A DNA stretch of 64,000 nt from a virus: IMG/VR virus record IMGVR_UViG_3300035698_029335, positions 13,459 through 77,458 of that record; one strand, written 5' to 3'. Within the stretch, counting starts at the first letter, position 1. Each line of letters begins with the position of its first letter. Under the pieces are notes generated by a model. The model did not search any database, was not told the DNA's origin, and worked only from the letters and a program-made list of their open reading frames with translations. The translations under genes were made by a program, and so were the position numbers. Positions 9,602 through 40,797 of this stretch are shown piece by piece.

Positions 9602-10597
9602 TTATCCCAATAATTTAAGGTTGTGTCTTATGGAGCGCGTACTAAAGCCCCACTGTTCATCATAATCTAGCTTTGCCATGTATGGTCTATTCATGTGCAC
9701 AACATCCTTCTTCTTATCATAGCCCCAACACTTGATCCTCGTGACTGTGTTTGTTTCATCGATAGTTTCCAAGATGGCGTAATCTTTTCCTTTTGCCGTT
9801 TTCTTTAGAACAATAGCCTTAGGGATAAACCAAGTTAATTCCATTACTGGATCATATTCAGCTATCGGAGGTACCTTATATGCTTCCAGACGTTCCCTCA
9901 CTGCATCACTCAGTACCATAGCTATAGGATATATACCAGTTAACTGAATAAGGTTCAGTATCCTCTCTTCTCTCGAAAAGTCGCCTTCAGGAGCGTACAA
10001 TTTAATGTTGGCTTCCAGCTGGTCTTTGTTTCTTGGTCGATCGACTGCGACACACGACCAAAAATGCTTAGCCCCAGTGAACCTTTCATCAACTAGCTGC
10101 GCTAGCGCACCTGAACGGCACAATACATCTAAGTTGCCTTTGTTTAGTTTTCCGTATGAAACTCTTTCGTGGAAAAGCAACTCCTCAACGCTATTAAATG
10201 GTCGGTAATTAACTATCTCTTTAATCGCCGCATCACCAACACCCTTTATAGAGCTGAGTGGTTGAATTAGTGTTTTGCTATCTTCTTCAGCAATTTCCCA
10301 CTTTGAACCAGAGGCATTAATATCAAGACCTCTAATTTTATAACCAAGACTCTTAATGATGTTGTTCGCTTCTTCTTTCTTTGCTTCGCCTTGAGCATCC
10401 AAATAAGCAGCCAGCCACTCTGATGGGTGATAAGTCATCAACCAAGCACACTGATAAGAAACCATTGAATATGAAACGGCATGGCTATTCGAGGTCAATG
10501 TACCGTCAGTCAAATAAAATTGATGATCTTCGTGCTCTACCTCTAAGTCATAAGTGTCTATCTCGCCCATTTCTTCACAAGAAATTATCATCGCCAT
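9602..10597 (-). CDS. dnaE: DnaE C-terminal part: 37-aa split-intein C fragment plus 294-aa C-extein
   Basis: TYDLEV...HQFYL.DG.LTSN|SHAVSYS..SYQ.AWL, HhH LSSIKGVG, OB fold; AGGAG SD. Confidence 0.92.
   Translation of the reverse strand: MAMIISCEEMGEIDTYDLEVEHEDHQFYLTDGTLTSNSHAVSYSMVSYQCAWLMTYHPSEWLAAYLDAQGEAKKEEANNIIKSLGYKIRGLDINASGSKWEIAEEDSKTLIQPLSSIKGVGDAAIKEIVNYRPFNSVEELLFHERVSYGKLNKGNLDVLCRSGALAQLVDERFTGAKHFWSCVAVDRPRNKDQLEANIKLYAPEGDFSREERILNLIQLTGIYPIAMVLSDAVRERLEAYKVPPIAEYDPVMELTWFIPKAIVLKKTAKGKDYAILETIDETNTVTRIKCWGYDKKKDVVHMNRPYMAKLDYDEQWGFSTRSIRHNLKLLG
10487..10597 (-). mobile_element. split intein C fragment (DnaE)
   Basis: Blocks F/G ending S-N, followed by +1 Ser. Confidence 0.9.
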
Positions 10598-10629
10598 ATT
10601 CTTCTCCTAATTTGTAGACGCCTTTATTG

Positions 10630-10869
10630 TTACGTCGTATTAATTCTTCTATTACTTCCAAGTGTTTTCGTTCGAATTCTTCTCTTCTGTAGTTGTATAA
10701 ACTCACCCCTACGGATCAGTTTATATTGTATCACATATGTTTGCCCTTCATAGGAGAAACATGGAAGCTCCTGCAATATTTCAACGACAAGAACGAACTT
10801 GCCGCGAATATCATTAAAGCCAGACCAATTCGCACCTGTTAGCACTAAGTCGCCTACTTCGAACTTCAT
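10630..10869 (-). CDS. GDLV-family protein with a non-family C-terminal tail
   Basis: MKFEVGDLVLTGANW...PCF; lacks the family ATIVSK-like end. Confidence 0.6.
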   Translation of the reverse strand: MKFEVGDLVLTGANWSGFNDIRGKFVLVVEILQELPCFSYEGQTYVIQYKLIRRGEFIQLQKRRIRTKTLGSNRRINTT

Positions 10870-11043
10870 TCAATTGCCTTTATCTTCGTGGTTACATAGC
10901 CAATAGCCTGCCACTATCCATCATCACTAGTGTACCTTTGGCGACAAGAATTTTTGTCGTTTTCCTTCTTTTTGTCACCATGGCAACCAGCACCAGAAAT
11001 ATTCCATGCCTTTAATGCATTGAGATTCCTAGTTGCTGCAATT

Positions 11044-11196
11044 TTATTCCTGCGTCTTTTCTTTTTTCTCTTTCCCACATGTCCCACCGGTCGCCATATC
11101 TTCGACGACCTTACAGTCATCACCTGAAAACTCTTCAGACCAATGATCATTCCAGCTTTCACCAGTCAATTGTATGAGATCGCCGACCTGAAACAT
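11044..11196 (-). CDS. short GDLV-family protein (not in the ORF track)
   Basis: MFQVGDLIQLTGESW..., 50 aa. Confidence 0.5.
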   Translation of the reverse strand: MFQVGDLIQLTGESWNDHWSEEFSGDDCKVVEDMATGGTCGKEKKEKTQE

Positions 11197-11207
11197 GTTT
11201 TTTGTCA

Positions 11208-11540
11208 TTATTTTGCCAAGGAGAAGGTGCCATAAACATTATCACCGGTCTCATACTTCAACTCAAAGTCAACTGTTACCTCCTGATCGAACTCTAGTAC
11301 CTCCATGATGATCGTCTTTGCTTTGCGATCATATTCCCAACCAGCTGCAGCGGAACCAGAACAACCAAGCCCTACGACTTCACCATCAGTATGCTCGAAT
11401 GTGTGAGTTCCAGTGCTCAAGTTCTGTGCATTGAGACCGCTTTCGAGGAACATAAATTTAGCCATGTACATTTTCTCGCCGTTTGTCGTGACGAGACTAA
11501 ACTCCTCGAAGCCATGTGAGTCTGTACACACCTTCTTCAC
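11208..11540 (-). CDS. hypothetical protein
   Basis: Co-oriented, coupled ORF. Confidence 0.55.
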   Translation of the reverse strand: MKKVCTDSHGFEEFSLVTTNGEKMYMAKFMFLESGLNAQNLSTGTHTFEHTDGEVVGLGCSGSAAAGWEYDRKAKTIIMEVLEFDQEVTVDFELKYETGDNVYGTFSLAK

Positions 11541-11743
11541 GCAACTACTTTTGAAATCAACTTGATGGTCTCACGTTTGTACAAATTGTTGTCGGTCGCG
11601 TGCACGTCTGGCGTACACCATTCAATTCTGTAAAATCGCATAGCATAAATAATTACTCCAATCACAATGCCATAACCTAGCCTGGCGAACCTTTCGCCTG
11701 AAGCATGTCTCACTAGGTCTCCAATATGAACTTTTCGCATCAC
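11537..11743 (-). CDS. GDLV-family protein
   Basis: IGDLVRH...GIV...YRIEW...IKLISK. Confidence 0.65.
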   Translation of the reverse strand: MMRKVHIGDLVRHASGERFARLGYGIVIGVIIYAMRFYRIEWCTPDVHATDNNLYKRETIKLISKVVA

Positions 11744-11985
11744 AAAACCTTTGTCTTAGCTATCAGAGAAAGGGAAGTTGCGCTTCTGGTGATAATGAGT
11801 TCTCCATACTCTAAGCGATACACAAGCTTGTTGTCCCAATAGTGTGACCTATATTTTTCTACAATTAGAAAAGGTCGAACTGTAGTTATGGGAACCCCGT
11901 CGTTCAGCCGCTCTTCATCAACCAAACAAACTAAATCACCAATTTGAAAACTATAATCATCACAGTCATCATCACAGTCATGCAT
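11740..11985 (-). CDS. GDLV-family protein
   Basis: FQIGDLVCL...LSLIAK. Confidence 0.65.
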   Translation of the reverse strand: MHDCDDDCDDYSFQIGDLVCLVDEERLNDGVPITTVRPFLIVEKYRSHYWDNKLVYRLEYGELIITRSATSLSLIAKTKVL

Positions 11986-11993
11986 TGGGGTCC

Positions 11994-12200
11994 TTAAGTT
12001 GTAGAAACAAGTGAATCACAGGGCATTTCAATTCTCACAGCACACTGATTAATGCGTTTTTCCATTATATGATTTCGCCGGGTATGTGCACCAGAACTGC
12101 ATGCCTTCAAGTAGTTCACTTCTGTTCTTCCTGAAGCTCTCAATAAATAAAGTCTTGCCTCACCTTTACCTAGCTGATAAGATACCATCACATTCATCAT
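11994..12200 (-). CDS. hypothetical protein
   Basis: Co-oriented ORF. Confidence 0.35.
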   Translation of the reverse strand: MMNVMVSYQLGKGEARLYLLRASGRTEVNYLKACSSGAHTRRNHIMEKRINQCAVRIEMPCDSLVSTT

Positions 12201-12430
12201 AACTTTTCTGCTTTCTGTATTAGGAGGAGCGGCTTGTTTGAGCCTTGTTGGTTGCCAAAGAGCGAATGTTTCTCGCCAAAGGCAACAACGTAAGTGAGAT
12301 TTGTATCTGCATAGTTTTGATAGACAGAATCATACACACTAATAACTACACCTATACCATGCTCATTGATCAATTTATTAGAGTATATACTTGAAAGAGA
12401 TACTAAGTCGCCGACCTCTATTTCTTCCAT
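12197..12430 (-). CDS. GDLV-family protein
   Basis: IEVGDLVSL...GIGVV...Y.V.F...LLLIQK. Confidence 0.65.
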   Translation of the reverse strand: MEEIEVGDLVSLSSIYSNKLINEHGIGVVISVYDSVYQNYADTNLTYVVAFGEKHSLFGNQQGSNKPLLLIQKAEKL

Positions 12431-12434
12431 TTTA

Positions 12435-12659
12435 TCACCCTTTCGATATTTTATATTTCTTCCAGTTTCTGAGAGCGCCTCCGTATTCTTCTCGTTCGAC
12501 TACTTCGCAGGTGCCATCAAAAGGACAACTCGTGCCTGAAAGTAAAACATATGAATCATTTATTCCATCTGTAGCAACTACTAGAAATCGACAAGTACCC
12601 GTGTCTTCATTAATATCAATGTCGCTGCTGTATATAAGGTCTCCAACTTTTAGATACAT
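12435..12659 (-). CDS. GDLV-family protein
   Basis: LKVGDLIY. Confidence 0.6.
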   Translation of the reverse strand: MYLKVGDLIYSSDIDINEDTGTCRFLVVATDGINDSYVLLSGTSCPFDGTCEVVEREEYGGALRNWKKYKISKG

Positions 12660-12859
12660 TCTTCTAGCTCCTTTACTCTCGCGACAAGTTTCAAACTAGA
12701 GCCTTTGTGGGTCCTATTTGAATAGGTTGAATGAGGTTTATTATCTTGCCAGAGAATGATATATCTCTCGCCCTTAAAAGCAAAAGTAATTATGCCCAAT
12801 GCATTGTTCAAAATGGGACTCTTCTTGCATACTAAATCGCCTACTTTAAACATCAACAT
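12650..12859 (-). CDS. GDLV-family protein
   Basis: FKVGDLVC...GII...YIILW...LKLVAR. Confidence 0.65.
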   Translation of the reverse strand: MLMFKVGDLVCKKSPILNNALGIITFAFKGERYIILWQDNKPHSTYSNRTHKGSSLKLVARVKELEECI

Positions 12860-12957
12860 AATTATTCGTCCGACAAATTAATTGCCCGTACAACTCTTGC
12901 GACTGGGTTTGTAGCAGCAGCAATCAACTGAAGGTTTGTGGTTTTGATTGCGAAGCT

Positions 12958-13194
12958 TTAAGAAATGCCATACACAAACTCAAGCATAGGCAACTCTTCT
13001 TTGATCTGATGCTTATAGAGGCTATCTTTGGCTCGTGGGTGGTGGTCTGCTTTTAACTCAAAGCCATGCAAACCACACTTTCCAGACCACACTTTCCTAA
13101 TGGCTTGCTCATCTGCAGAAGCAAAATAAATGTCGCCCATTGAAGACGTTCCAGTGCTATCGCACCGCCTAATCAAAACATACATACCCAGCAC
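12958..13194 (-). CDS. hypothetical protein
   Basis: Co-oriented ORF. Confidence 0.45.
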   Translation of the reverse strand: MLGMYVLIRRCDSTGTSSMGDIYFASADEQAIRKVWSGKCGLHGFELKADHHPRAKDSLYKHQIKEELPMLEFVYGIS

Positions 13195-13209
13195 CCTTTC
13201 GTCTGCAAA

Positions 13210-13536
13210 TTATCTTAAAATAGTACCGCGAAAGCATCTTGTTATTGTGTGCCACTCACCGTCCCACGATGAATCACCCAACATCAATTGCCCTTTTTTG
13301 GTGTATACACCAACTCCATCAGTAACACCAAATTCATTCAGCAGACCGTTGAGTCGCTCTCTAGTGGTGGTCGTGTTCCATCCGGCAGTAGTAATGTGCA
13401 GCCCGAGATTAGAGAACTTTGCAATCTTGTTGCCGCGCAAAAACATCTCACCATCACGCACACATGTGTTTGCTTTGCCGAAGTTTTCTCCATCGAAAAA
13501 GGCTGCAGCTGCTTCTTTAGTGATCTTTCGTGACAT
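13210..13536 (-). CDS. hypothetical early protein
   Basis: First gene after a promoter, AGGAG SD; GW.TTTT.ERLN motif. Confidence 0.65.
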   Translation of the reverse strand: MSRKITKEAAAAFFDGENFGKANTCVRDGEMFLRGNKIAKFSNLGLHITTAGWNTTTTRERLNGLLNEFGVTDGVGVYTKKGQLMLGDSSWDGEWHTITRCFRGTILR

Positions 13537-13563
13537 GCGTAGCTCCTGGTTTTTGTTAAATTA

Positions 13564-13592
13564 AGTTTAGCAGATCATTTTGCATTTGTCAA
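13564..13592 (-). promoter_or_regulatory. early promoter, ATGATCTG class
   Basis: TTGACA-aatgcaaa-ATGATCTG-c-TAAACT. Confidence 0.85.
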
Positions 13593-13678
13593 ATATGTTA
13601 CGGCTCATATTCAACCACGCACTGTACCAGCATTAGTTCGTTCTGGTTCCGGTGCGCGAAAAGTGTTTTCGAGTCATC

Positions 13679-13900
13679 TCAACTCCTCAGTTGTTTTCGC
13701 CCATGAGACAATTCAGCAAGAGCAAAGCCTCGAATGAAGGCTTTGAAGAGTGGAATATTACAACCCACTTCACCGCCTTTCTTGACTAGCGTCATTAATT
13801 CATCATGCAACAATGGCACACATGTACCACCATCCTTGAAGTGCATTTTTCCCATTCGCTGAGCTTCTAAGAGTACTTCGCGAGCGTAAATCACAGCCAT
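13679..13900 (-). CDS. hypothetical protein
   Basis: AAGGA SD, co-oriented. Confidence 0.55.
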   Translation of the reverse strand: MAVIYAREVLLEAQRMGKMHFKDGGTCVPLLHDELMTLVKKGGEVGCNIPLFKAFIRGFALAELSHGRKQLRS

Positions 13901-13915
13901 TTTTGTTTCCTTCTT

Positions 13916-14113
13916 TTAAAAGATGCTCTTTTTAGCCGAAAGAGCGCACTGTTCCATCGATTCATCAACTGTGAGAGGTCGCAAGCCCATGATTTTATAG
14001 ATTTTTCCGGTAACTGCACGAATCTTCTTTTCACAGGCGACTGCCTCTGCCAACGTATCAGTGCATGCACAGACTTGCTTTGTTTCGTTCAAGATCACAT
14101 ACATATTGAACAC
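13916..14113 (-). CDS. hypothetical protein
   Basis: Follows a promoter. Confidence 0.5.
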   Translation of the reverse strand: MFNMYVILNETKQVCACTDTLAEAVACEKKIRAVTGKIYKIMGLRPLTVDESMEQCALSAKKSIF

Positions 14114-14133
14114 CTCATCTTTCTTATTTTCTT

Positions 14134-14162
14134 ACTCTACCAGATCATTTTGGTAAAATCAA
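14134..14162 (-). promoter_or_regulatory. early promoter, ATGATCTG class
   Basis: TTGATT-ttaccaaa-ATGATCTG-g-TAGAGT. Confidence 0.7.
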
Positions 14163-14166
14163 CCTT

Positions 14167-14661
14167 CTATTCGCATTTCGTTGAGGCAGGTGGCAATTCG
14201 TTTTGAGTTGCAGTCTTTATTAAGCCGACTCTCTCTGTATCTTCTTCTGTCCAATAAGTATCTTCGCTGTGAGTGGAACCATCATACAACCAGCCGGTCC
14301 TATCTCTAATATCCGTATGGGTTAGTTCGTGCGGCAATGCTAGTGGTATAGTGTATATGTCACTATTGGAAGTATTGTATCCAGTAACACAAATATCATC
14401 TTCTACCATATACGCGTCTTTGTATTGTTGTGTCACATCTAATGCAGCACTAAAGAACTCGATAGTGACTCCTTCATAGTTCCTACCAAGAAGAGCTAAT
14501 ACTCTTTCAGCATACACTCTCTCATCAACGCTCATGCCAATCAAGCATGCTCCAGAAGGCGCACTTTTGTGACCACCCCTTGCGAACTCGTTCTTACATG
14601 GTCCTTCTGGAATACAAGAGTTCATTAAGCAGACGGCAAGTATCATGATAGCATATTTCAT
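14167..14661 (-). CDS. putative lipoprotein with HExxH motif
   Basis: MKYAIMILAVCLMNS-C signal peptide/lipobox; PHELTH. Confidence 0.55.
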   Translation of the reverse strand: MKYAIMILAVCLMNSCIPEGPCKNEFARGGHKSAPSGACLIGMSVDERVYAERVLALLGRNYEGVTIEFFSAALDVTQQYKDAYMVEDDICVTGYNTSNSDIYTIPLALPHELTHTDIRDRTGWLYDGSTHSEDTYWTEEDTERVGLIKTATQNELPPASTKCE

Positions 14662-15221
14662 TCGACTACGCTCTTGATTGCCTTCTTGTCTAAGCCAATA
14701 ATAGCTCTATTAAGTGAACGCATGATGTGTTCCACTTTATTAGTTTCATCTCTGGTTACAGTGTCGGCATTTAGATGAGCTTCAAAGATGCATAGCTGCG
14801 CCACCAACTTTCTCGTTGCAATAATTGCAGTTGCGGTGCACTTATCATGACGACCCTTTACTCGTGCGGCTCGCTGCTGAGCTTCTTTCTTAGTCACGCC
14901 AAAGGCTTTTCTGGCTTCTATACGCTTTTTGTTCCACAATTCAATGATTGGCAACGAGAGATCATCGTCCTTCATGAAGAAGAGGCATGTTCGCTTATTT
15001 GAATTCAAAAAATGTATGAACTCATTCCACAAACCTGCCTCTTCTTGTGAAAGGTCGACATGTCTTGTAGCAGCTGCTTTTGTCATAGCATACGTCTGGG
15101 CTCCTAACGATCTCCTGCTGCTGTCCCAACGATTTGTTATCGACCACATTCGCTCTGTAAATTGCTCCAGGCGCTTCATTATTTCGCTCGCCAACGCTGA
15201 CGGCTCCTTATACTCTTTCAT
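14658..15221 (-). CDS. hypothetical protein
   Basis: GAGG SD, coupled to the next gene. Confidence 0.6.
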   Translation of the reverse strand: MKEYKEPSALASEIMKRLEQFTERMWSITNRWDSSRRSLGAQTYAMTKAAATRHVDLSQEEAGLWNEFIHFLNSNKRTCLFFMKDDDLSLPIIELWNKKRIEARKAFGVTKKEAQQRAARVKGRHDKCTATAIIATRKLVAQLCIFEAHLNADTVTRDETNKVEHIMRSLNRAIIGLDKKAIKSVVE

Positions 15222-15230
15222 CCTTTCCTC

Positions 15231-15395
15231 TTATTTGTATACTTTCGTTAATACACTGCTTGCATGCAAGAGTGTGGCACCTTTGTAGGTGCCAACTACC
15301 CACTCGACGCGTACAAATTGGTAGCCTATAGTTTGCACTATTTTTCCTAAGCTACCAGCTTCCAAGCGTACTTCTTCACCTATCTTAAAATACAT
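15231..15395 (-). CDS. GDLV-like small protein (not in the ORF track)
   Basis: MYFKIGEEVRL..G.LGKIV....VRVEW...LTKV, 54 aa. Confidence 0.55.
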   Translation of the reverse strand: MYFKIGEEVRLEAGSLGKIVQTIGYQFVRVEWVVGTYKGATLLHASSVLTKVYK

Positions 15396-15485
15396 CTCAT
15401 ACTCTTATTAAGGGGTGGGTGAAGTACAATGTCCAGCGGCGAACACAACTCTTATAGCGCTGATGTTTTACCGCTTTAATTATAA

Positions 15486-15806
15486 TCACGCCGATCCGTA
15501 TTTCGTCAGGGCTCGTTCTAGGAAGCCACCATCGAAAAGAGACTCGAACACTTCTTGTGGGATGCCCACCTTTGCGTGACTGAAGCGTGTCTTATTTTGA
15601 GCCATATTGAGGCGCTGTACTGCGATGTGCACCCCGAGCTTACGATTAGGGTTGTCGGCTGGATTCACAACACTGTACGCTGCGTCGAACGTACCATTGT
15701 CGTTTACAGTGTACACTAGGGTGCCCATCAAACGACCTCGCTCCGAGCTGTAATCGTTCTTGTTTTGGTGGAAATGTTTTACTTTAACTTTTTTAACTTC
15801 TTGCAT
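15486..15806 (-). CDS. hypothetical protein
   Basis: GAGGGG SD; D.PNRKLG..IA..RL motif seen in phage proteins. Confidence 0.6.
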   Translation of the reverse strand: MQEVKKVKVKHFHQNKNDYSSERGRLMGTLVYTVNDNGTFDAAYSVVNPADNPNRKLGVHIAVQRLNMAQNKTRFSHAKVGIPQEVFESLFDGGFLERALTKYGSA

Positions 15807-15845
15807 GTGTTCTTCCCTCAGCCTTGAATGGCTATTTGTTTACTG

Positions 15846-16109
15846 TTACTTCTCTTCGTCTTCGTCTATACTTACTGCTCTGCCTTTAATTAATGACAAA
15901 GGCACCCGGCAGCTGCGACCTAAATTCTGTAAGTACACCTCATATATACAGGTTAAATGTCCACCCACAACAGACGTATAAGGTCCTGAAAGAATGTACC
16001 CAACCCCAGCCACAAACTTTCCTTCTTCTTGCTTGTAAAGGCGACGTCGCATCGCGTGATCGCTCATGCTTATTTCGACCAAGTCACCTTCGTGATATAC
16101 TTCTTTCAT
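15846..16109 (-). CDS. GDLV-family protein
   Basis: YHEGDLVEI...GVG.I...YEVY. Confidence 0.6.
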   Translation of the reverse strand: MKEVYHEGDLVEISMSDHAMRRRLYKQEEGKFVAGVGYILSGPYTSVVGGHLTCIYEVYLQNLGRSCRVPLSLIKGRAVSIDEDEEK

Positions 16110-16314
16110 GCTAGTTCACCTTCGGAGAATACACAGCTCGCTAGTTTGATTCTAAGCTCACGAGTCATACAGGTCCCTCTTTTATTCCACAATACTTTAG
16201 CTAAGTGCAGTTGCTCTGCATAAGATACATGTTACCGATGACAATACCTATGTCGCCCTTAGATCCCTCTTCCTCTTGTAGGAGCTGCACTAAGTCGCCG
16301 ATGTTATATTGCAC
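16106..16314 (-). pseudogene. frameshifted GDLV-family gene
   Basis: VQYNIGDLVQL...DIGIVI hits TAG; the other frame continues AKVLW...IKLAS to a stop coupled to the next ATG. Confidence 0.55.
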
Positions 16315-16315
16315 T

Positions 16316-16531
16316 TCAATCTCCTTCGGGTATATATACAGCTTTCGCTAGTTTGACGTATGAGGCGTTATCAATACAGTGAACAGTCTGCCCTTCTAGC
16401 TCTCCCCACGACACCCTAATATAACGATCGTGCATTATATCGATGACAATACCTATATCACACACATGTTTTCCTTGCATGAAATACACTAAATCACCAA
16501 CGCTATAGTGCACCTTTCTTTTCTTCATCAC
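16316..16531 (-). CDS. GDLV-family protein
   Basis: YSVGDLVY...DIGIVI...IRVSW...VKLAK. Confidence 0.65.
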   Translation of the reverse strand: MMKKRKVHYSVGDLVYFMQGKHVCDIGIVIDIMHDRYIRVSWGELEGQTVHCIDNASYVKLAKAVYIPEGD

Positions 16532-16547
16532 TCACCTTGTTGCAGTG

Positions 16548-16599
16548 AAGTGAAGGTGTGACAACAGTGTTATTCAAAGTAGTTGTCACACCTTCACTT
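16548..16599. terminator. 18-bp perfect inverted repeat
   Basis: aagtgaaggtgtgacaac-16nt-gttgtcacaccttcactt; the T-run lies on the plus strand. Confidence 0.5.
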
Positions 16600-16603
16600 T
16601 TTC

Positions 16604-17806: not shown

Positions 17807-17843
17807 CTTTTTTCCTTTTGGTTCTGGTGATCTGCCTGGAAAC

Positions 17844-17872
17844 ATTATAGCAGATCATTGTGGTTATGTCAA
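17844..17872 (-). promoter_or_regulatory. early promoter, ATGATCTG class
   Basis: TTGACA-taaccaca-ATGATCTG-c-TATAAT. Confidence 0.88.
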
Positions 17873-17980
17873 ATACGTTTCCCAAGTATCTTTTTCAGTT
17901 TACATCTGCGATGATCTCGGAAACTTTTCTAATATCTTCAGATTTCATAATGATCCCTGCCTTTCAAAGATCGTAACAAA

Positions 17981-18109
17981 TCATTCTCCTGTTGTCAACG
18001 CTTTGCTTATCATGGTGGCGGAATAGTCACAATGCCCACTATTGAAAGTAATCTCTTCCATTGTACCGTCACTCATTGCGAAGAACGGGTCACCAATCTC
18101 AAACTGCAT
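17981..18109 (-). CDS. internally deleted GDLV-family gene (42 aa)
   Basis: AGGAGG SD; MQFEIGD-PFF...DYSATMISK keeps both family ends. Confidence 0.5.
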   Translation of the reverse strand: MQFEIGDPFFAMSDGTMEEITFNSGHCDYSATMISKALTTGE

Positions 18110-18124
18110 AAATACCTCCTTGCT

Positions 18125-18153
18125 AGGATATCAGATCATCTCACTTCTGTCAA
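18125..18153 (-). promoter_or_regulatory. early promoter, ATGATCTG class
   Basis: TTGACA-gaagtgag-ATGATCTG-a-TATCCT. Confidence 0.8.
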
Positions 18154-18164
18154 CAACTACTCGT

Positions 18165-18193
18165 AAAGAAAAAGAGGGGCTTGCGCCCCCCTC
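18165..18193 (-). terminator. intrinsic terminator after the AAA gene
   Basis: GAGGGG...CCCCTC stem followed by TTTTT. Confidence 0.75.
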
Positions 18194-18213
18194 AATCACC
18201 ATTCAACTACTTC

Positions 18214-19356
18214 CTAGCTCTTAGCAGCTGCTTCTTCAGCCTCTTTCTTGGCTTGCATCCCAGTCAACAACTCACGAAGGTAAATAGAGACAGCTGTTTT
18301 CTTGCCATTAATAGTCACAGGTTGTGCATGCAAAGCAACAGTGTTTTCCGTCGGACCAACATTGAGTCCTCCCCAGATCTTCATGGCTGCTTCCGATGGC
18401 AAGGTGATGAAGTATTCACCAAGATTCTTGATCTGCTTCTTGGTCAACTTCTTAGCGAGCGACTCCATTGTTGCCATCTTCTCGATCAAGGTCAAGTGCT
18501 CAATAAGACCGTAGTCTTTAGTCAGCTCGAGCTTACCCTTGTCGATGATGTCAGCTGGCGACACTTGACGGTCATAAGATCCGAAGAAGTCTGAGAACGC
18601 ACAGGCTGCTTCAAACCCTACATAGCCAAGAGACAGAAGACGAATCTTATCGCTCCACTCTTCGAGCAGCCCTGATTCTCGCATGGTGTCATTCAGACGC
18701 TTCCAGGAGCGTCGCGAAGGGTACTTCTTATTTGCCACGAAGTCATCCTTCGCGTTCTCAAGGTGAGGAATGTTCTGATTCACGAAATCAAGAACAACCT
18801 TGTCGAGGTTATTATGCCCCAGCTCTCTGCCATCGGCATCACGAGCAGGAGCTTTGCCCCATTGCATCCAATCTTCAACAGAAGGAGAAATGTCGTATAC
18901 AGTCCAGCGATCGAGTTCTGCCGGATCCATCTCACCAACTTGATATTGTGCCCCCTCGTCACCCCCATTAACTGCCGCGACTACCAAAGTGTCCTTGTGT
19001 AGGGCAAAGCCGTTGAGCTTTCGCGAGTCAGTAAGCTCGAAGATGCCTTGACGTACTTCGATTACGGCACGGTCAACTTCATCGAGGAACAACATTACTG
19101 GGCTGCAGCATGCATCTTTAAACCAGTCTGGCGGGTTCCAAGCCGTTGCTGCATCTTCAATAGTCGGCAACCCAACCAGGTCACCTTCAGTCATTTGTGA
19201 GGCACGTCGTTCGACGACGCGAAGACCAAGATCTGCAGCTGCTTGGTAGACGACCTCAGATTTACCAATTCCATGTCGACCACGGATCATTAGCGGGTGC
19301 TTTGCTTCAAATACGAATGGAGCGATTTCACGGAACGTAGCAAAGTCAATCTTCAT
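18214..19356 (-). CDS. MoxR-like AAA+ ATPase
   Basis: Walker A GRHGIGKS, Walker B LFLDEVDRA, sensor AAVN, MDPA..DRW, SRRSW. Confidence 0.88.
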   Translation of the reverse strand: MKIDFATFREIAPFVFEAKHPLMIRGRHGIGKSEVVYQAAADLGLRVVERRASQMTEGDLVGLPTIEDAATAWNPPDWFKDACCSPVMLFLDEVDRAVIEVRQGIFELTDSRKLNGFALHKDTLVVAAVNGGDEGAQYQVGEMDPAELDRWTVYDISPSVEDWMQWGKAPARDADGRELGHNNLDKVVLDFVNQNIPHLENAKDDFVANKKYPSRRSWKRLNDTMRESGLLEEWSDKIRLLSLGYVGFEAACAFSDFFGSYDRQVSPADIIDKGKLELTKDYGLIEHLTLIEKMATMESLAKKLTKKQIKNLGEYFITLPSEAAMKIWGGLNVGPTENTVALHAQPVTINGKKTAVSIYLRELLTGMQAKKEAEEAAAKS

Positions 19357-19402
19357 TTCTCATCCTTTAGCAGAGAGTGGTTTGTTTGTCTCTCTTGGAA
19401 CC

Positions 19403-19431
19403 AGTCTATCAGATCATTTCTAATGTGTCAA
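19403..19431 (-). promoter_or_regulatory. early promoter, ATGATCTG class
   Basis: TTGACA-cattagaa-ATGATCTG-a-TAGACT. Confidence 0.85.
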
Positions 19432-19567
19432 CGTTCCTGGTGGTGTTTTTTATTCTTCTTTATAAACAGATAGTTATGCGGCTGTAGCTCTTATTTCTGT
19501 TCCTCCACAGTTCCTCTTTAAGGCTGCGCAGGGGAATGATCACTTTTGAGATCAAAAAAGCCAGACA

Positions 19568-19923
19568 TCAGCCTGGCAGTCTTCCGTCATATTTATCGAA
19601 GTCGCTTTCCCACATCTCCGCCACCGTATATCCTTGTTCTTGCAGAGCCTTTTTTCTTTTCAGCCACTCGTTGTGTAATGCACCATATTTTTTTTGACAA
19701 CCGGGTTTGTTCCCTCAGCTAGGTATTTGTCTGGCGAGTGTGCCGAGCGCACATTGGGCAACCTGCTGCACTACTTATGTGATTGCTAGGTGATTGCATA
19801 AAGACTCCGTGTTCTAAGCACACTATCTTTACTTTTGTGCGCGCCCTTGTAGTCAGTCAAATTATAGTTATAAGTGCCTTTGTGCACTAACCTAGCTCGT
19901 TTGATAAACTCATCTGTAGTCAT
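19568..19923 (-). pseudogene. miniature degraded copy of the repeat-module endonuclease
   Basis: MTTDEFIKRARLVH..., one frameshifted module, catalytic core missing, tail GYTV.EMWESDFDK with DNA near-identical to 50633-50687. Confidence 0.8.
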
Positions 19924-19934
19924 TGTTCTCCTAC

Positions 19935-20165
19935 TCATTCTTGATCCCACTTCCTGAACATCGAGACCTGATACCAGTCATCATCCTGGGTGGTGTACTT
20001 CTGACATGTGACATACTCTCCATTCCATTGGAAGGCTGGAGCGCCGTCGCCCCATTGTACAGCCATCGCAACGATAAGTTTAAATTCTCCTTTGAGACCA
20101 AAGTTCGCCCAACTTTCCCCTGTCAATTGTACAAGATCACCTATTTCAATTTCTTGTTCACTCAT
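19935..20165 (-). CDS. GDLV-family array unit 5
   Basis: MSEQEIEIGDLVQLTGESW. Confidence 0.75.
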   Translation of the reverse strand: MSEQEIEIGDLVQLTGESWANFGLKGEFKLIVAMAVQWGDGAPAFQWNGEYVTCQKYTTQDDDWYQVSMFRKWDQE

Positions 20166-20401
20166 GGGATGTATACATTACTTACAATGGTGGCTGAGTA
20201 GTCTTCGTAGCCACTTACGTAAGTTTCTTTACAATAAATGCTCAGGTAGTCGTAGATGTTGCCACTATCATAAGCAATTCTCGGGTGCTTCCCCACACCA
20301 ATGATAAGTGTCATTGTGTTGTACAACTCTGGAAAGTCACTCCGCCATGTAAGCCCAGTCAACTGCACAAGATCACCTATTTCGAATTCTTGCTCTTTCA
20401 T
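20162..20401 (-). CDS. GDLV-family array unit 4
   Basis: MKEQEFEIGDLVQLTG...DYSATIVSNVYIP. Confidence 0.75.
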   Translation of the reverse strand: MKEQEFEIGDLVQLTGLTWRSDFPELYNTMTLIIGVGKHPRIAYDSGNIYDYLSIYCKETYVSGYEDYSATIVSNVYIP

Positions 20402-20592
20402 GGTTTATATACTTTGCTTACAATAGTGGCTGCCCACCTTTCATTGACGTAATACAATTCGCCATTGTTAATAAACGCTGGTCCAAACATGTCTGATGTT
20501 GTTAATAATACAACGCTATCTTTAAGTTCTCCCCACCAATCTGCACCAGTTAATCTTACCAAGTCTCCTATTTCAAACTCTTGTTTTTTCAT
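20398..20592 (-). CDS. GDLV-family array unit 3
   Basis: MKKQEFEIGDLVRLTG...AATIVSKVYKP. Confidence 0.75.
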   Translation of the reverse strand: MKKQEFEIGDLVRLTGADWWGELKDSVVLLTTSDMFGPAFINNGELYYVNERWAATIVSKVYKP

Positions 20593-20784
20593 GGTCTACA
20601 TACCTTACTTACAATAGTGGCTGAGAAGTCGGTTTCGTATTCATCATAATAATAAATACTCCAGGTTTGCCGACAGGTCGAGAATGAGCCAACTGGAAAT
20701 ACCGGATCACCTTCAGCGTCATAACCAGTAATTCTGACCAGTCAGAATTACCAGGTCACCTATTTCAATTTTTTGTTCACTCAT
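20589..20784 (-). pseudogene. GDLV-family array unit 2, frameshifted
   Basis: MSEQKIEIGDLVILTG then an early TGA; the other frame reads VRITGYDAEGDPVF...DFSATIVSKVCRP. Confidence 0.75.
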
Positions 20785-20984
20785 GGATTGTATACCTTAC
20801 TTACAACTGTAACTTCCCATTCCTCGCCAACATAATATTTTTCACAATCAATAGGATCACAAAAACATGGCTGATAGGAGTTATTGAGTGACGTTATCAA
20901 TACAGTTTTGTTTTTAACTTCTTCCCACCAAGCATCACCAGTCAATTGTACAAGATCACCTATTTCAATTTCTTGCTCTTTCAT
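20781..20984 (-). CDS. GDLV-family array unit 1
   Basis: MKEQEIEIGDLVQLTG...VTVVSKVYNP. Confidence 0.75.
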   Translation of the reverse strand: MKEQEIEIGDLVQLTGDAWWEEVKNKTVLITSLNNSYQPCFCDPIDCEKYYVGEEWEVTVVSKVYNP

Positions 20985-21012
20985 GGTTTATATACTTTGC
21001 TTACAATAGTGG

Positions 21013-21663
21013 CTATAGTTTATACTTTTTAATGTCGCGCTCCTCTACCGTTACAGCACAAGTTCCACCAACAGGCATCAAGAGGTATTTTTTCGCCCCC
21101 ATTGCATGAGATGTTGGGACCTGGTGGTTAGAAGCAACGACGAGAGCGGCTTTCCACTCTGCAATATCTTTGAGGTGCTTCTTCAGAGTAACAAGCGCAC
21201 CATCAGCGAACTTTGGCTTTTCAGTGTATGCTATATAATAGCCTTCTGCGTACTTGCTGTGCACAAATTGCTTGTAAGTTCTCCTTGGCACAACATAGTC
21301 TTCTTCTTCAAAAATCCTGCTTATTAGTGCGCCCCAATAGCCAGTCTGATTGAGTTTGTTTGTCTCAAAGTAGAACTTAGCCATGATCATTGCACGTGGT
21401 CGCAATTCTGTTAAGTAATCACGCTTGTGCTTTTCTTCAAGCGCTAAGTAAGCCGGAGCGGTAGTTTCTTCGATTTTCTCAAAAGTTTTCATTTGCGCGT
21501 AGCTGAGATCACCATATTTTCGAAGAGTTTGCTCAATAGACTCAAGAAATTTCTTGTTCCACTCCGAAGTGTTGTCGGAGAGGGCTTCTGCTGTGTTTTG
21601 AATTCTCTCAAGGATCTGGTCAGGCATTCTAAACTCCTCTGTATGTATACTCCATCTTATCAC
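21013..21663 (-). CDS. hypothetical protein with C-terminal SH3-like module
   Basis: W...FLESI......LS..Q N-terminal motif; PKF..GALV C-terminal module. Confidence 0.65.
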   Translation of the reverse strand: MIRWSIHTEEFRMPDQILERIQNTAEALSDNTSEWNKKFLESIEQTLRKYGDLSYAQMKTFEKIEETTAPAYLALEEKHKRDYLTELRPRAMIMAKFYFETNKLNQTGYWGALISRIFEEEDYVVPRRTYKQFVHSKYAEGYYIAYTEKPKFADGALVTLKKHLKDIAEWKAALVVASNHQVPTSHAMGAKKYLLMPVGGTCAVTVEERDIKKYKL

Positions 21664-21902
21664 GGATCACTTTGAGAGTCAACCTCCATTTCCTCGCACG
21701 CCACCAACAAGCGCAGGCAGCGCAGCGCTATGTATTGTGGTCTCCTGGCTTTTCGAAACTTAACTACAAACCATGCCGATGGTAATACTGGCTTCTCAGT
21801 GACTACGCCGACGTCGCTCTGCAAATACCCAAAGAGACTGGTCGAATATTTGTCATCAGCTATGCATACCAAGTCGCCAACACTAATATCTTCTCGGTTC
21901 AT
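21660..21902 (-). CDS. GDLV-family protein
   Basis: ISVGDLVC...GVV...FVVKF...LRLLV. Confidence 0.65.
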   Translation of the reverse strand: MNREDISVGDLVCIADDKYSTSLFGYLQSDVGVVTEKPVLPSAWFVVKFRKARRPQYIALRCLRLLVACEEMEVDSQSDP

Positions 21903-22786
21903 AGTTCACGCTCACGCACTTTACTTGCAAGAGTGGCTGTATAATCGATCGCGTATTTGTGGACCCTAATCAATAGAATGTCTTTGGTAGCTACATACTT
22001 TTCGAGCATCAGATCTTTCTTTTGTACAACTTCAAGCTGCCCATGTATTTCTCTAAAATGATGTGGACCATCAACTTCTATTATCACCTTCATCCTTTTC
22101 GCATATATATCTATTTGCTTTCTCGACGTCAAGTTCATATCGAATAATACACTTTTTATCTGCCTGTTACTCTTAAAATCATATGTCGGAAATCTTTCCT
22201 TAATGTACATATACATCCACTTCTCTGGTTTAGACTTATACTTGTGCATTTGCTTTATACATTTGTTGTAGAAATCTTCTGGATTTTCTTTCCTCCATCG
22301 AGCAAGTACTTCAGCTCTCTTGTCTTGCACATCTTGTCTGGCTGAAGTTTTCATTGCTGTCTTTGAAGCACGTTCTCTAAAATCCTCTCTTTTGTTCAGA
22401 TTCCCAAGGAGTCTTGAGCGGCGAAGCCTCTCGGCAGGATTAGCCATTATCGATTTTGTTACAACTTGACCCATCCTAAGTTTTGCCTTCTCGGTCATGG
22501 TTTCATACCCCATCTCTTTACATCTGCTATTACTGCAGTTGTGCTCCTCCTTATAGTGTGGCGACAAATCGGCAGATACAAAGCTGCACAACTCACACGC
22601 TATAAGGTCTCCCAATTCTACACCCCTTTCCTTACAAAGCTCACAAACGTATCTGTGATTGAAGAAAGCCTTTATACTGTATAGTTCATAATCGCAAGCT
22701 ACAGCAGTTCCAAACCTCTCTTCGCAATCTCTCTTATTGGCAGCTTTTCTCCGCATTTTGTCCTGAATTTGTGATCTTTCGTGCAT
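21899..22786 (-). CDS. Vsr/DUF559-like endonuclease adjacent to the DnaE split intein, probably C-terminally disrupted
   Basis: SKPE, QIDIY, IIEVDGPHH, KD, LLIRV; the tail DYTATLASKV is GDLV-family sequence. Confidence 0.7.
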   Translation of the reverse strand: MHERSQIQDKMRRKAANKRDCEERFGTAVACDYELYSIKAFFNHRYVCELCKERGVELGDLIACELCSFVSADLSPHYKEEHNCSNSRCKEMGYETMTEKAKLRMGQVVTKSIMANPAERLRRSRLLGNLNKREDFRERASKTAMKTSARQDVQDKRAEVLARWRKENPEDFYNKCIKQMHKYKSKPEKWMYMYIKERFPTYDFKSNRQIKSVLFDMNLTSRKQIDIYAKRMKVIIEVDGPHHFREIHGQLEVVQKKDLMLEKYVATKDILLIRVHKYAIDYTATLASKVREREL

Positions 22787-25578
22787 CTTATTACTCTCCC
22801 GTCACTTAAAGTATACTTATACACTTTTTTGACGCCGTTTTTATGTCTCTTTTTGACAGGGAGAAAAATATCCTTTTTCGTCTTTTCAGAGCGCGAACGC
22901 ACAATATCACCTGGCAGTACGTCAATAATCCTCTTATCACACAAAACATCACCACCGTCACTATAAATAGTAACCAGTTCATCAAAGTGCAAGCAAGCGT
23001 TGAAACCATAGCCAGCCCATAGCTCGCAGGAATGATACAACTTTTCTGCATCCATCTTACTAATTCCTTTTTCAATGCAGCCATCAATAAACTTCGGCTT
23101 AATCTCAGCCAACACCTTGTCTGCTTTGCCAGTACCCTTCTTAGTTAATACCTTTCTGAAGATGTTTCCGTCGTTCAGCGAAATACCTTTGCCAAGCTTG
23201 TGTGCCAATAATGCGATTTGTTCTTGAAACACAAGGAACCCATAAGTATCTTCGGTAACTTCTTTATGTAGTGGATGCAAATACTCAATTGAAGATGGGT
23301 CTTTTCTTGCTTCAATATACAACTTATCCACCTTCATACCCAATGCAGCTGGTCGAAAGATAGAAGTGACTGCTGAAATATCAGTGATATTGGTAGGCTT
23401 TACTTTTGTGCAAAACTTCTGTGCTCCTTCACCTGTAAATTGAAAGATGCCAGCCCACTTGCCTTGATGGAACACTTCTTCATATACTCTTTGATCGTCC
23501 ACGTCCAAAACATCTGGGTGTAGATTTTCATCATAATACTTCCTAACATCCTCAAAAGAAGGTCTCTTGATGCCGCGTGTGCGCTGCAGAATTCTCCTTG
23601 TCGCACCATCGATCATCTCTAAAGTAGACAAACCTAAGATGTCGAACTTAATAAAGCCCATAGGTTCCAAGTGCCTAACATTTTGACCTTCACTCCACGG
23701 CGTTTGACGTACACCCTTGCCGCTGATTAGTGGCATGTATTTGTTTAAGTCTTCTCCAATAACGCAGCCACCAGCATGCTTTGACTGACTACGAATGGAG
23801 CCGTAAAGTGCATCAATATACACTTCCACTTGTGGGTGTTTAACTAGAAACTTGTTAAGCGTATCACTGTATTTTTTGATTTCCTCAAAAGTAGGCACAT
23901 ATATACCAGTCTTTATGCCATTAGCTTTTTTAGCAGCTGGTGTTGCCTCTGAAATCATCTTACCGGTCACAACATTGACCTCAGCAAAAGGTATATCATA
24001 AAGCTTCGAGATGTCTTTGACTAACGATTTCAGTTGCAAAGTATTCCAGTTGGTAATAGGTACCACTCGGTTCTCGCCCCAATCTTCGATAAGCAAATCT
24101 TTCAATTCTGATGGATTTGAAACATCATAATCGATATCAGGCATATCAACTGCATCCGCACGCAAGAAGCGTTCGAATTGTAGGTTGTATTTTATAGGAT
24201 CAATCTGCGTAATACCAAGCGCATATGCCACGATGCTACCAGCTGCAGAGCCTCGCCCAGGAGCAGTTAATTGTACTTTTACAGCCTTATCTGCAATAGC
24301 ATTCATTGTCAAGAAGTATTTTGCAAAATTAAGCTTAGAGATTACCCCTAGTTCGTACTCAATTCTGTTCGTGTATGCGTTAGATATACGATATATCCTT
24401 TTCTTGCTTTTGTTCTTAATACTGAAGACCTTTTTCAGTCCTATCCCAACCAGCTCTTTTAGTTCTTCATCAGCCGTTTTACCTTCAGGCACAACAAAGT
24501 CAGGCAAACGAATTGTTGTGTCTGGCGCAAAATCTTCGATTACGTCATGAGCAATACTGTGTGTTAACTCGATGGATTTTAGCACCAAGTCATCATCATA
24601 TTTAATGTCCAAATCTTTCGTATATTTCTTGTACGCTTCCCACATCTGATTGCCGTTTTTAGGATACAATTCATACCCAACTTCTTCAACAGTCGAAGGG
24701 ATATCTTCGATGGACGCGCCCTTGCCTCCCATCCAGCCCAACTTCTTGTATACTAGTCGTGACTGCCATGCTTCGGGGCTAGGGTAGTGGCTGTCAGCTG
24801 TAGAGATTAGTTGTACTCCAAACTCCTTAGCCACCTTAATTACTAATTGATTAATTTCGTGTTGTTCAGGAATTGCATTCCACTGCAGCTCTGCATACCA
24901 TCTATCACCAAAAATACCTTGCATCCTTCGTGTAGTTTCGCGCATTGCCTCTAGGACTGTTTCCTCCCCTTCCTCTCTATGCAACCAATAATCTTGAGCA
25001 TAAATTCCACCCATACAAGCCGATGTTGCAATAACGCCTTCGCTGTGCTTCTCCAACAGAGCATAGTCAATGCGAGGGAAGCGATAAAAGTTCTTCTCAG
25101 TGTAGGATTGTGAAATAATCTGAAAGAGGTTGTTTAACCCTGTTTGGTTTTGCGCCAACAGGATCATATGCGCTCTTCTGTTTACTATGTTTTTATTACT
25201 TTTTTTAGTTTCTTCTTCATCTTCGATAGTAGCGCCAATAGATGAACCTTCATCTTTCTTTTTTCTACCTTTCTTAGTTTTATTTTCTTCCGCAATCCGC
25301 TCTTTGTCGAGCTTCCATTGTGTTAGGTCTGGGTGGAAGTAAGCCTCTACACCATAGATTGCCTTAAACTCTTTACCAGCTTCTTTCATCTTCTTGGTAT
25401 GCAATACTTGCTCTACTAGACCGTTCATATGCCCATGGTTTGTGATAGCCATAGCATCTCCTCCGTTTTGATAACAAAAATCAAGATGTTGATCAGTAGG
25501 ACCAAACCCGTCAAAAATTGAATATCCGTCATGAGCATGCAAATTGACATATGGGATTTTAGAAACTGTTCTTTTCAT
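22699..25578 (-). CDS. dnaE: DnaE N-terminal part (861 aa) plus 98-aa split-intein N fragment
   Basis: PHP NLHAH..YS..DG, TNHG, GRGSAAGS, PDIDYD, KFDILGL, GIFQF, GYGFNA|CL. Confidence 0.95.
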   Translation of the reverse strand: MKRTVSKIPYVNLHAHDGYSIFDGFGPTDQHLDFCYQNGGDAMAITNHGHMNGLVEQVLHTKKMKEAGKEFKAIYGVEAYFHPDLTQWKLDKERIAEENKTKKGRKKKDEGSSIGATIEDEEETKKSNKNIVNRRAHMILLAQNQTGLNNLFQIISQSYTEKNFYRFPRIDYALLEKHSEGVIATSACMGGIYAQDYWLHREEGEETVLEAMRETTRRMQGIFGDRWYAELQWNAIPEQHEINQLVIKVAKEFGVQLISTADSHYPSPEAWQSRLVYKKLGWMGGKGASIEDIPSTVEEVGYELYPKNGNQMWEAYKKYTKDLDIKYDDDLVLKSIELTHSIAHDVIEDFAPDTTIRLPDFVVPEGKTADEELKELVGIGLKKVFSIKNKSKKRIYRISNAYTNRIEYELGVISKLNFAKYFLTMNAIADKAVKVQLTAPGRGSAAGSIVAYALGITQIDPIKYNLQFERFLRADAVDMPDIDYDVSNPSELKDLLIEDWGENRVVPITNWNTLQLKSLVKDISKLYDIPFAEVNVVTGKMISEATPAAKKANGIKTGIYVPTFEEIKKYSDTLNKFLVKHPQVEVYIDALYGSIRSQSKHAGGCVIGEDLNKYMPLISGKGVRQTPWSEGQNVRHLEPMGFIKFDILGLSTLEMIDGATRRILQRTRGIKRPSFEDVRKYYDENLHPDVLDVDDQRVYEEVFHQGKWAGIFQFTGEGAQKFCTKVKPTNITDISAVTSIFRPAALGMKVDKLYIEARKDPSSIEYLHPLHKEVTEDTYGFLVFQEQIALLAHKLGKGISLNDGNIFRKVLTKKGTGKADKVLAEIKPKFIDGCIEKGISKMDAEKLYHSCELWAGYGFNACLHFDELVTIYSDGGDVLCDKRIIDVLPGDIVRSRSEKTKKDIFLPVKKRHKNGVKKVYKYTLSDGRVIRCTKDHKFRTKCGEKLPIREIAKRGLELL
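22702..22995 (-). mobile_element. split intein N fragment (DnaE)
   Basis: Block A CLHFDE, block B IRCTKDHKF, ends LPIREIAKRGLELL-stop. Confidence 0.92.
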
Positions 25579-33841: not shown

Positions 33842-33862
33842 GTTTCATGTTTCATGTTTCAT
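33829..33862 (-). repeat. (ATGAAAC)x4 plus ATGAAA tandem repeat
   Basis: Plus strand reads ttcatgt x4 then ttcat at the IntN/endonuclease boundary. Confidence 0.95.
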
Positions 33863-40760: not shown

Positions 40761-40766
40761 TGATGC

Positions 40767-40795
40767 ATCATAACACGATCTCTTTCTTTTGTCAA
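40767..40795 (-). promoter_or_regulatory. sigma70 promoter giving a probably leaderless polA mRNA
   Basis: TTGACA-17bp-TATGAT, 6 nt before the ATG, no SD. Confidence 0.7.
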
Positions 40796-40797
40796 GC

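Follow-up and report, generated by a model that had tools for sequence, protein, structure and literature searches.

How can a phage keep the two halves of its replicase gene 12,101 nt apart, and how did the halves come to be separated? The question is raised by dnaE, the gene for the DNA polymerase III alpha subunit, in a 64,000-nt stretch of viral DNA (the window), which covers positions 13,459 to 77,458 of the 77,458-bp virus record IMGVR_UViG_3300035698_029335. Coordinates are window positions unless marked "genome". The virus is a large T4-like myovirus of a salt lake, and its record is about 43% complete by CheckV. The contig has a single dnaE, which is divided into two open reading frames (ORFs), dnaE-N and dnaE-C. 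The stop of dnaE-N and the start of dnaE-C are 12,101 nt and about 29 ORFs of the same strand apart, close to the 12.1 kb and 30 genes given in the original prediction, which was made from the letters of the DNA alone. We consider it probable that dnaE is here a functional fractured gene whose product is restored by protein trans-splicing, and that a relocated gene module sits within the homing endonuclease gene between the two intein halves.

Both dnaE ORFs, like the features between them, are on the minus strand, and each consists of a part of DnaE and a part of a split intein. The dnaE-N ORF (22699..25578) encodes 959 residues. Its 861-residue N-extein (22996..25578) ends with ELWAGYGFNA and carries the Pfam domains PF02811 (PHP), PF07733 (DNA_pol3_alpha) and PF17657 (finger); the N-terminal intein fragment (IntN, 22702..22995) has 98 residues, begins with Cys1 in CLHFD, ends with LPIREIAKRGLELL and is followed by the stop codon at 22699-22701. 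The dnaE-C ORF (9602..10597) encodes 331 residues, of which the first 37 are the C-terminal intein fragment (IntC, 10487..10597; MAMIISCEEMGEIDTYDLEVEHEDHQFYLTDGTLTSN, ending with TYDLEVEHEDHQFYLTDGTLTSN) and the remaining 294 are the C-extein (9602..10486 with the stop), which starts with SHAVSY and has the HHH_6 domain PF14579. A GGAG Shine-Dalgarno sequence lies 7 nt upstream of the dnaE-C ATG. The switch from DnaE to intein after GYGFNA, at residue 861, had been proposed from the translation and is now supported by the Pfam and PDB matches. The same holds for the fusion of a 37-residue fragment to SHAVSY at an ORF starting at 10597, for which the intein match and the GGAG sequence speak.

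Joining the two exteins (861 + 294) gives a DnaE of 1155 residues and restores the motif YGFN-x-SHA, as was originally proposed. Uninterrupted dnaE genes were found in about 102 related viral loci and in 75 metagenome loci, with 50-79% identity. In these contiguous homologs a gap of 3 nt, or one codon, separates the counterpart of N-extein residue 860 from that of C-extein residue 1. Since about 102 + 75 contiguous loci show this 3-nt gap at the predicted splice site, chance is excluded as the origin of the extein junction. A comparison with the dnaE of related phage contigs had been suggested together with the original prediction; the intact homologs, more than 100 in number, join exactly at the predicted splice site. 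In alignments to solved structures, the N-extein follows the Taq and E. coli Pol III alpha subunits through N814/N757 and one further residue, and C-extein residue 1 aligns to S759 of the E. coli protein. The splice site therefore corresponds to E. coli K758/S759, where the slash, here and below, marks the splice site.

The catalytic motifs PDIDxD and KFDxLGL are kept in the N-extein, and both dnaE ORFs are intact, being full length with no frameshift or stop. Compared with the contiguous DnaE of the closest relative (L042), the N-extein is 79% and the C-extein 76% identical, and both halves are about as conserved against this relative as the neighbouring genes. No nearer relative or pre-insertion allele with more than 76% identity was present in the metagenome collection.

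The intein fragments are of the DnaE type. Against the PDB, IntN aligns with the Npu/Ssp DnaE IntN fragments at E = 4e-11, has the C-terminal end that they have, and is about 50% identical to cyanobacterial DnaE IntN across the last 54 residues; the likeness to the Npu DnaE intein noted in the original prediction is thus substantiated. IntC matches the DnaE intein 7qil with E = 0.007. The window and four other loci were aligned over the conserved intein positions. Intein residue 1, directly after GYGFNA, is Cys in the window (CLHFD), and this column holds Cys or Ser in 5/5 loci. In block B, C-T-K-D-H-K-F (T-x-x-H) in the window, the His is invariant and the Thr/Ser conserved in the five loci, and in blocks F/G (TYDLEVEHEDHQFYL..LTSN/SH) the terminal Asn and Ser+1 are invariant in all five. 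Cys/Ser1, T-x-x-H, Asn/Ser+1, the restoration of the extein and the canonical split position together are the sequence marks of a class 1 split intein (HINT fold, DnaE type).

The insertion site, GYGFN(A or K)/SH, lies in the same motif as the cyanobacterial site KFAEY/CFNKS, four residues downstream of it; a displacement of a few residues from the Npu site had been foreseen. The cyanobacterial DnaE intein allele itself is ruled out by this four-residue shift.

A model of the complex of IntN (residues 852-959) and IntC (residues 1-47) gave an ipSAE of 0.69, against 0.01 for the best control. This mark is reached by 51 of 78 solved complexes and by 2 of 108 mismatched pairs. The partner pLDDT was at least 71 and the contact agreement between runs at least 91%. 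The model may pass by its likeness to the solved DnaE inteins rather than offer independent proof. From their sequences, the intein fragments are predicted to associate and very probably to trans-splice the two halves into the 1155-residue DnaE.

What lies between IntN and IntC is a homing endonuclease gene that has itself been interrupted. An ORF of 295 residues (21899..22786) stands directly after IntN and begins inside the IntN coding region in a different frame. Its 5' body of about 280 codons (21941..22786) matches the ORFs between IntN and IntC in two other loci, with 34% identity (E = 3e-35) to that of L110 and 42% identity over 324 residues to the endonuclease of L129. It contains the motifs CxxC...CxxC and E-x-DG-x-HHF, the second of which aligns with the L110 and L129 endonucleases. 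The profile matches are weak (DUF559, E = 0.005, below the curated cut-off; phrog_559, E = 5e-8). The gene product is predicted to be a free-standing, Vsr-like endonuclease, as in fractured genes.

The match to the L129 endonuclease ends near codon 280 (...LLIRVHKYAIDY), and the missing tail is located 11.2 kb from the body. It comprises 43 codons at 10575..10706 (...LYNYRREEFERKHLEVIEELIRRNNKGVYKLGEEYGDDNFL, then a stop), which are 46.5% identical over 43 residues (E = 8e-9) to the C-terminus of the L129 protein (...YDYRGEGEFSEKCLDKLNELLYNRQPGIFFLGEEYGENNCL, then a stop) and contiguous with the body match. The detached tail ends 23 nt inside IntC, and the overlap in L110 is identical. The homology of the remnant is clear only against L129, which is closer than L110: BLASTP of the 43-residue remnant against the L110 endonuclease gave no significant match, and an alignment of the L110 and window DNA had only the Shine-Dalgarno-ATG stretch in common. 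Seeing that the body and its missing tail flank the block of genes between them (about 10701..21940), the block lies inside the endonuclease gene. An earlier reading, an insertion into bare intein DNA, is thereby replaced by a canonical IntN-endonuclease-IntC fractured gene with an interrupted endonuclease. About 45 residues at the C-terminus of the endonuclease have been replaced, which makes its activity doubtful.

In the same genome, a further homing-endonuclease-like ORF of 502 residues (57451..58959, minus strand; phrog_559 with E = 4e-98, and phrog_3339) separates the Gp23-like major capsid gene (59084..60814) from the structural gene that follows. This ORF falls into the same PHROG as the dnaE-associated endonuclease.

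The ends of the block carry scars of the event. At the left junction (21899..21940) the endonuclease reads on in frame into the 3' end of a GDLV gene, as seen from a repeat copy and a profile match. The GDLV family (xEIGDLVxLTG...ATIVSKVYxP) consists of lineage-specific mini-genes of 54-79 residues. The 13 new residues that end the endonuclease ORF (...DY-TATLASKVREREL, then a stop) align to GDLV profile positions 55-64 of 67, and the first block gene starts with an ATG that overlaps their stop. The junction repeat of the GDLV array, AGCCACTATTGTAAGCAAAGT, has a fifth copy at 21918-21938 with 3 mismatches, where 0.00 copies are expected by chance. At the right junction, the last block gene (10630..10869) is a GDLV mini-gene (profile positions 5-43, E = 2e-8). 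Its first 56 or so codons are family-like (profile positions 1 to about 50); beyond them the gene crosses the endonuclease remnant in a different frame. The order is thus endonuclease 5' end fused to GDLV 3' end, the block, and GDLV 5' end fused to endonuclease 3' end. Because the endonuclease gene and the mini-gene are cut in complementary ways, we infer a single recombination event. A single crossover that joined the endonuclease gene with a GDLV gene, the latter on a circular or circularly permuted module copy, would account for the scars and is well supported by them. It would be less economical to suppose that two different GDLV genes broke independently at complementary positions.

Where did the block come from? 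In no relative does a homolog of any block ORF lie within 10 kb of dnaE. Homologs of its 216-residue gene, its ATPase gene and its DUF2201 gene are found 20-24 kb downstream of the intact dnaE in relatives, and in one relative contig the block-gene homologs are about 30 kb from dnaE on the opposite strand. A relative contig of 82.6 kb (L045, L111) is colinear with the window genome from ThyX through dnaE and a further 16-20 kb of shared genes to a 92-residue gene. After this gene the relative has the 216-residue gene, the ATPase and DUF2201, whereas the window genome has them inside dnaE. A promoter motif of the block occurs only in the block, at window 3532 and in the region adjoining the module's inferred former site (genome 3357-5379). 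From this gene order, the block is likely to be a relocated native early-gene module and not foreign DNA. Of the original proposal that the inside of the replicase gene had become a tolerated landing site for a large accessory block, the tolerance of the insertion stands, and the accessory nature of the block does not, the module apparently being a native one moved from about 20 kb downstream.

A foreign accessory island, acquired horizontally into an otherwise unchanged split intein with trans-splicing, is unlikely. The three conserved block genes stand in matching order in relatives with identities of 29-59%, against 57-62% for DnaE; there they directly follow genes that are colinear with the window genome, whose ancestral position is without the three. 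The promoter motif and a GDLV member are also present in the native left-end region. An island would fit the slightly higher GC content at 16-20 kb and the roughly 20 small block ORFs that lack a homolog in any related locus examined or in the family libraries, as well as the GDLV family, which is absent from all 127 related loci examined and for that reason cannot date the insertion. The contig of the closest relative, L042, is uninformative on this point: a search of the whole contig for the ATPase gave no match, and the contig ends before the module's expected position.

With the block taken as a relocated native module, the history of the locus may be proposed in three steps. A mobile DnaE-type split intein with its Vsr-like homing endonuclease would have invaded dnaE at GYGFN(K or A)/SH, giving the compact layout. 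The 11.2-kb early-gene module, which carries its own sigma-70-type promoters, terminators, the ATPase/DUF2201 pair and the expanding GDLV family, would have moved away from its customary position some 20 kb downstream of dnaE. One illegitimate crossover would then have joined the 3' part of the endonuclease gene to a GDLV gene carried by a circular (or circularly permuted) module copy. The insertion could be tolerated because the endonuclease was dispensable and the DnaE pieces were already separate proteins. These pieces would still meet by IntN-IntC pairing and be ligated by protein trans-splicing.

The block (10701..21940, about 11.24 kb and 28 ORFs) was characterised with Pfam, PHROGs and the relatives. 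It encodes an AAA_5/MoxR-like ATPase (18214..19356), a DUF2201 metallopeptidase/VWA protein (16604..17845) and a Kyano_Gp96 homolog (13210..13536), all assigned by Pfam/PHROGs, besides an 80-residue gene, the 216-residue gene and about 20 orphan small ORFs, for which Pfam and PHROGs gave no match. Four or five GDLV mini-genes form a tandem array from 19935 to about 20984-21014, with a repeat of about 87 nt across each ATGA stop/start overlap. In addition to the gene at the right junction, dispersed GDLV copies are present at 11044..11208 and near the left end of the genome (genome 2344..2571).

The promoter motif reads TTGACA-N9-ATGATCTG-N-TA, its spacer has an invariant GATC, and it was found in 11 copies, all on the coding strand and confined to small-gene regions. 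Six copies are in the block (19431, 18153, 17998, 17872, 14162 and 13592; span 13564..19431), four at genome 3357-5379 and one at window 3532 (3508-3532). Two strong terminators in the block (19577-19560 and 18193-18172) stand between dnaE-N and dnaE-C. The motif nearest dnaE-C is that at 13592-13564, and no strong terminator was seen after it. With two terminators and the in-block promoters intervening, dnaE-C is probably no longer co-transcribed with dnaE-N. It would now probably be transcribed from the in-block promoters. Consensus sigma-70 promoters and the two terminators fit the earlier suggestion that the halves depend on different promoters, as far as the DNA alone can tell.

Several points weigh against this account. 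That the halves are co-expressed and spliced, and that the in-block promoters are used, are predictions from the DNA. All mapped runs are Logan contigs of one salt-lake system; X1 is possibly the source sample, and the whole 12 kb is not covered by any one Logan contig. The protein match of the endonuclease tail to the GDLV family is weak when taken alone (E = 0.03). The two junctions share no direct repeat or att-like duplication in their DNA (local alignment score 18, shuffle mean 18.5), and the fusion of GDLV 5' end and endonuclease 3' end is out of frame, so that the crossover was imprecise. The L042 contig ends early, and the former site of the module is therefore placed by relatives with 57% DnaE identity. 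Finally, in a record that is 43% complete a second polymerase may be encoded elsewhere.

This last point would favour a phage replicated by another polymerase, its own or that of the host, in which the dnaE ORFs are decaying remnants and no spliced DnaE is formed. We regard this as very improbable. The candidate replacement, a PolA-like ORF of 456 residues (39579..40949, minus strand), matches the DNA_pol_A profile only in part (positions 104-224, E = 9e-13). A broken endonuclease and the dependence of dnaE-C expression on foreign signals would fit decay, but both dnaE ORFs are full length without frameshift or stop and have their catalytic and intein residues intact. Conservation of the C half equals that of the N half and of the neighbouring genes, dnaE-C retains a good Shine-Dalgarno sequence, and DnaE is conserved in more than 100 relatives.

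The stretch is present in 17 salt-lake metagenome runs, and Logan contigs bridge the junctions with 0 mismatches. The junction of the block with dnaE-C is bridged by X1 8500-12978, X3 10447-10942 and X4 10567-10940, and those of dnaE-N, the endonuclease and the block by X1 20985-23998 and by X3 21633-22154 and 22338-22953. No Logan contig joins the halves directly or skips the block, so that these contigs give no sign of the misassembly that the original prediction named as a refutation. The contig mapping also gave a 105-nt "joint" at 23536/23642 and loose ends at 17335/17388, 23513/23682 and 24295/24327, which look like contigs of related phages that share conserved DnaE or DUF2201 stretches. 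A chimeric contig with an unrelated 11-kb segment between adjacent halves is extremely unlikely: the record is a metagenome-assembled fragment in which recurring promoters and paralogous mini-genes might lead assemblers astray, and the block is unspanned by any one Logan contig, but each junction is bridged by contigs of at least two samples, the two junctions have no repeat in common, the complementary endonuclease and GDLV gene-fusion scars would not arise from a mis-join, and the contig lacks the module at the site where it is expected.

The reading as a fractured dnaE with a relocated module in its endonuclease gene can be compared with other carriers of the intein. A motif scan for the window IntC found 29 other viral contigs, many of them from phages of 100-460 kb. 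The gap between IntN and IntC is 58-285 nt, with no endonuclease, in seven of them (L131 was verified as two ORFs), and 0.87-1.2 kb with an endonuclease in 16, so that 23/29 have the compact layout with 0.06-1.2 kb between the halves. According to the original prediction, phage fractured genes normally have a single endonuclease between their halves. One contig (L222) has a 2.0-kb gap with one large endonuclease. Two others carry cargo and have no endonuclease left between the halves. L231 (621-4126) has a 3.5-kb gap with seven ORFs, namely TadE/G-like and DUF7305 proteins, a TadE-like protein and small ORFs. L217 (3527-8207) has a 4.7-kb gap with six ORFs including a TnpB/Cas12f1-like gene and an N6/N4 DNA methyltransferase; L223, identical to it, is the same phage from a different assembly. 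L217 and L231 are 74-80% identical and have part of their cargo in common, which indicates that their island grew over time. The window is thus the extreme of a series and not a singleton. Among the carriers, extein identity is 26-56% and IntC identity 57-76%, a difference consistent with a horizontal spread of the intein. The IntC of the window itself is 59-76% identical to those of the 29 contigs.

The same genome provides an internal control in a compact fractured gene for a DnaB/gp41-like helicase (32286-35194, minus strand), whose halves are about 1 kb apart. The helicase N part with its IntN (33845..35194; ...WTASQTNR/CFSTSTKLL...) is followed by a DUF559/Vsr-like endonuclease of 358 residues (32765..33841) and by IntC with the helicase C part (32286..32795; ...IDITVDDTHMFFLENGVYTHN/SGLNAEVV), all on the minus strand.

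Further observations concern dnaE itself. In the window, a 142-residue ORF with two NUMOD3 motifs and HTH_7 (25575..26003, minus strand) overlaps the dnaE-N start by 4 nt. It has the DNA-binding part of a homing endonuclease but no nuclease domain, and none of the relatives has it. Several different split inteins divide the dnaE of L110 (5949-11173) and that of L129 (4430-8179) into several cistrons, with at least four pieces in L110 and an additional IntC at the start of ORF 4430..6106 in L129. Other interruptions of dnaE, 0.5-1.4 kb long and with the FNK/SH site intact, lie near residue 590 (L071, L092, L093) and near residue 189 (L090). They suggest further intein or endonuclease insertion sites in this DnaE clade. 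Nearly all coding in the window is on the minus strand, and no tRNA was found there. The best DnaE match in the phage GenBank collection has about 31% identity, there being no close isolate.

Together with the two other cargo lineages (3.5-4.7 kb), the locus suggests that trans-splicing relaxes the constraint of gene contiguity, so that an essential replicase gene becomes an insertion site. More tentatively, and with rather more doubt than confidence, the gap of a fractured gene might be a general safe harbour in large phage genomes, where a dispensable endonuclease gene absorbs modules and mobile elements and islands grow. The cargo would be the early-gene block in the window, and TnpB, methyltransferase and Tad-like genes in L217 and L231. 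If this were true, the gap would be a route to fully dispersed split genes such as the cyanobacterial dnaE, and dnaE-C behind early promoters would let the phage time the assembly of its polymerase through the availability of one half. To the relatives of the Npu DnaE intein the locus adds one with a natural Ser+1 and many variants found in nature, which may be of use to protein engineers.

Dassa et al. 2009 (PMC2677866) described fractured genes in which a split intein is accompanied by a free-standing Vsr-like homing endonuclease, three metagenomic DnaE loci among them. In the published loci only the endonuclease, or nothing (gp41-7), is located between the halves, and phage DnaE intein sites differ from the cyanobacterial ones (PMC2677866). 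The window shows the same order on the strand: host N part with IntN, a Vsr-like endonuclease starting near the IntN stop, its 3' end overlapping the IntC start, and IntC with the host C part. The host gene is likewise one of DNA replication, and a phage origin is likewise likely. The helicase gene of the window and 16 related dnaE loci are textbook examples of this type. The window dnaE lacks their compactness, its endonuclease gene being interrupted by 11.2 kb and about 28 genes. A route of endonuclease loss followed by dislocation of the halves was proposed (steps III and IV; PMC2677866). Unlike in that model, the halves were here uncoupled by an insertion into the endonuclease gene, with the scars preserved. 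In the literature searched, whose coverage is incomplete so that absence is no evidence against such cases, no phage with many genes between split-intein halves was found, and the motif strings of the window intein gave no match there.

Other split replication genes have endonucleases between their halves without inteins. In Aeh1 nrdA/mobE (PMC3045599) and in gp43 of Aeromonas phage 25 (cited in PMC2677866), an essential replication gene is split by a mobile endonuclease gene, as in the window. Those products reassemble non-covalently and are still functional, with the endonuclease alone between the halves (PMC3045599, PMC2677866), whereas the window has a split intein expected to restore one polypeptide and a multi-gene module between the halves. 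The split PolB of Nanoarchaeum equitans (cited in PMC2677866) is also a replicative polymerase encoded by two genes at separate loci with a natural split intein. It differs in being an archaeal family B polymerase with an unrelated intein allele and no trace of how its halves separated.

The cyanobacterial Ssp/Npu split DnaE shares with the phage locus the host protein and the motif region, and is the closest solved relative of IntN and IntC. Both lack the penultimate His (...SN), and both have halves that are encoded apart and trans-spliced, presumably so in the phage. The +1 nucleophile is Ser in the phage and not Cys, and the site is K758/S759 (E. coli numbering) as against Y/G(C)FNKS. The phage halves are 12 kb apart on one strand with the endonuclease and its scar remaining, whereas the cyanobacterial halves occupy separate chromosomal loci. 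Natural split inteins have been known in two states, side by side with an endonuclease, or far apart as in cyanobacterial DnaE and N. equitans PolB, and the step between the two was previously a proposal only. The window locus can be seen as an intermediate caught with its junctions still legible: by its sequence it appears to descend from a fractured gene of the type of Dassa et al. and to be organised like the cyanobacterial split DnaE.

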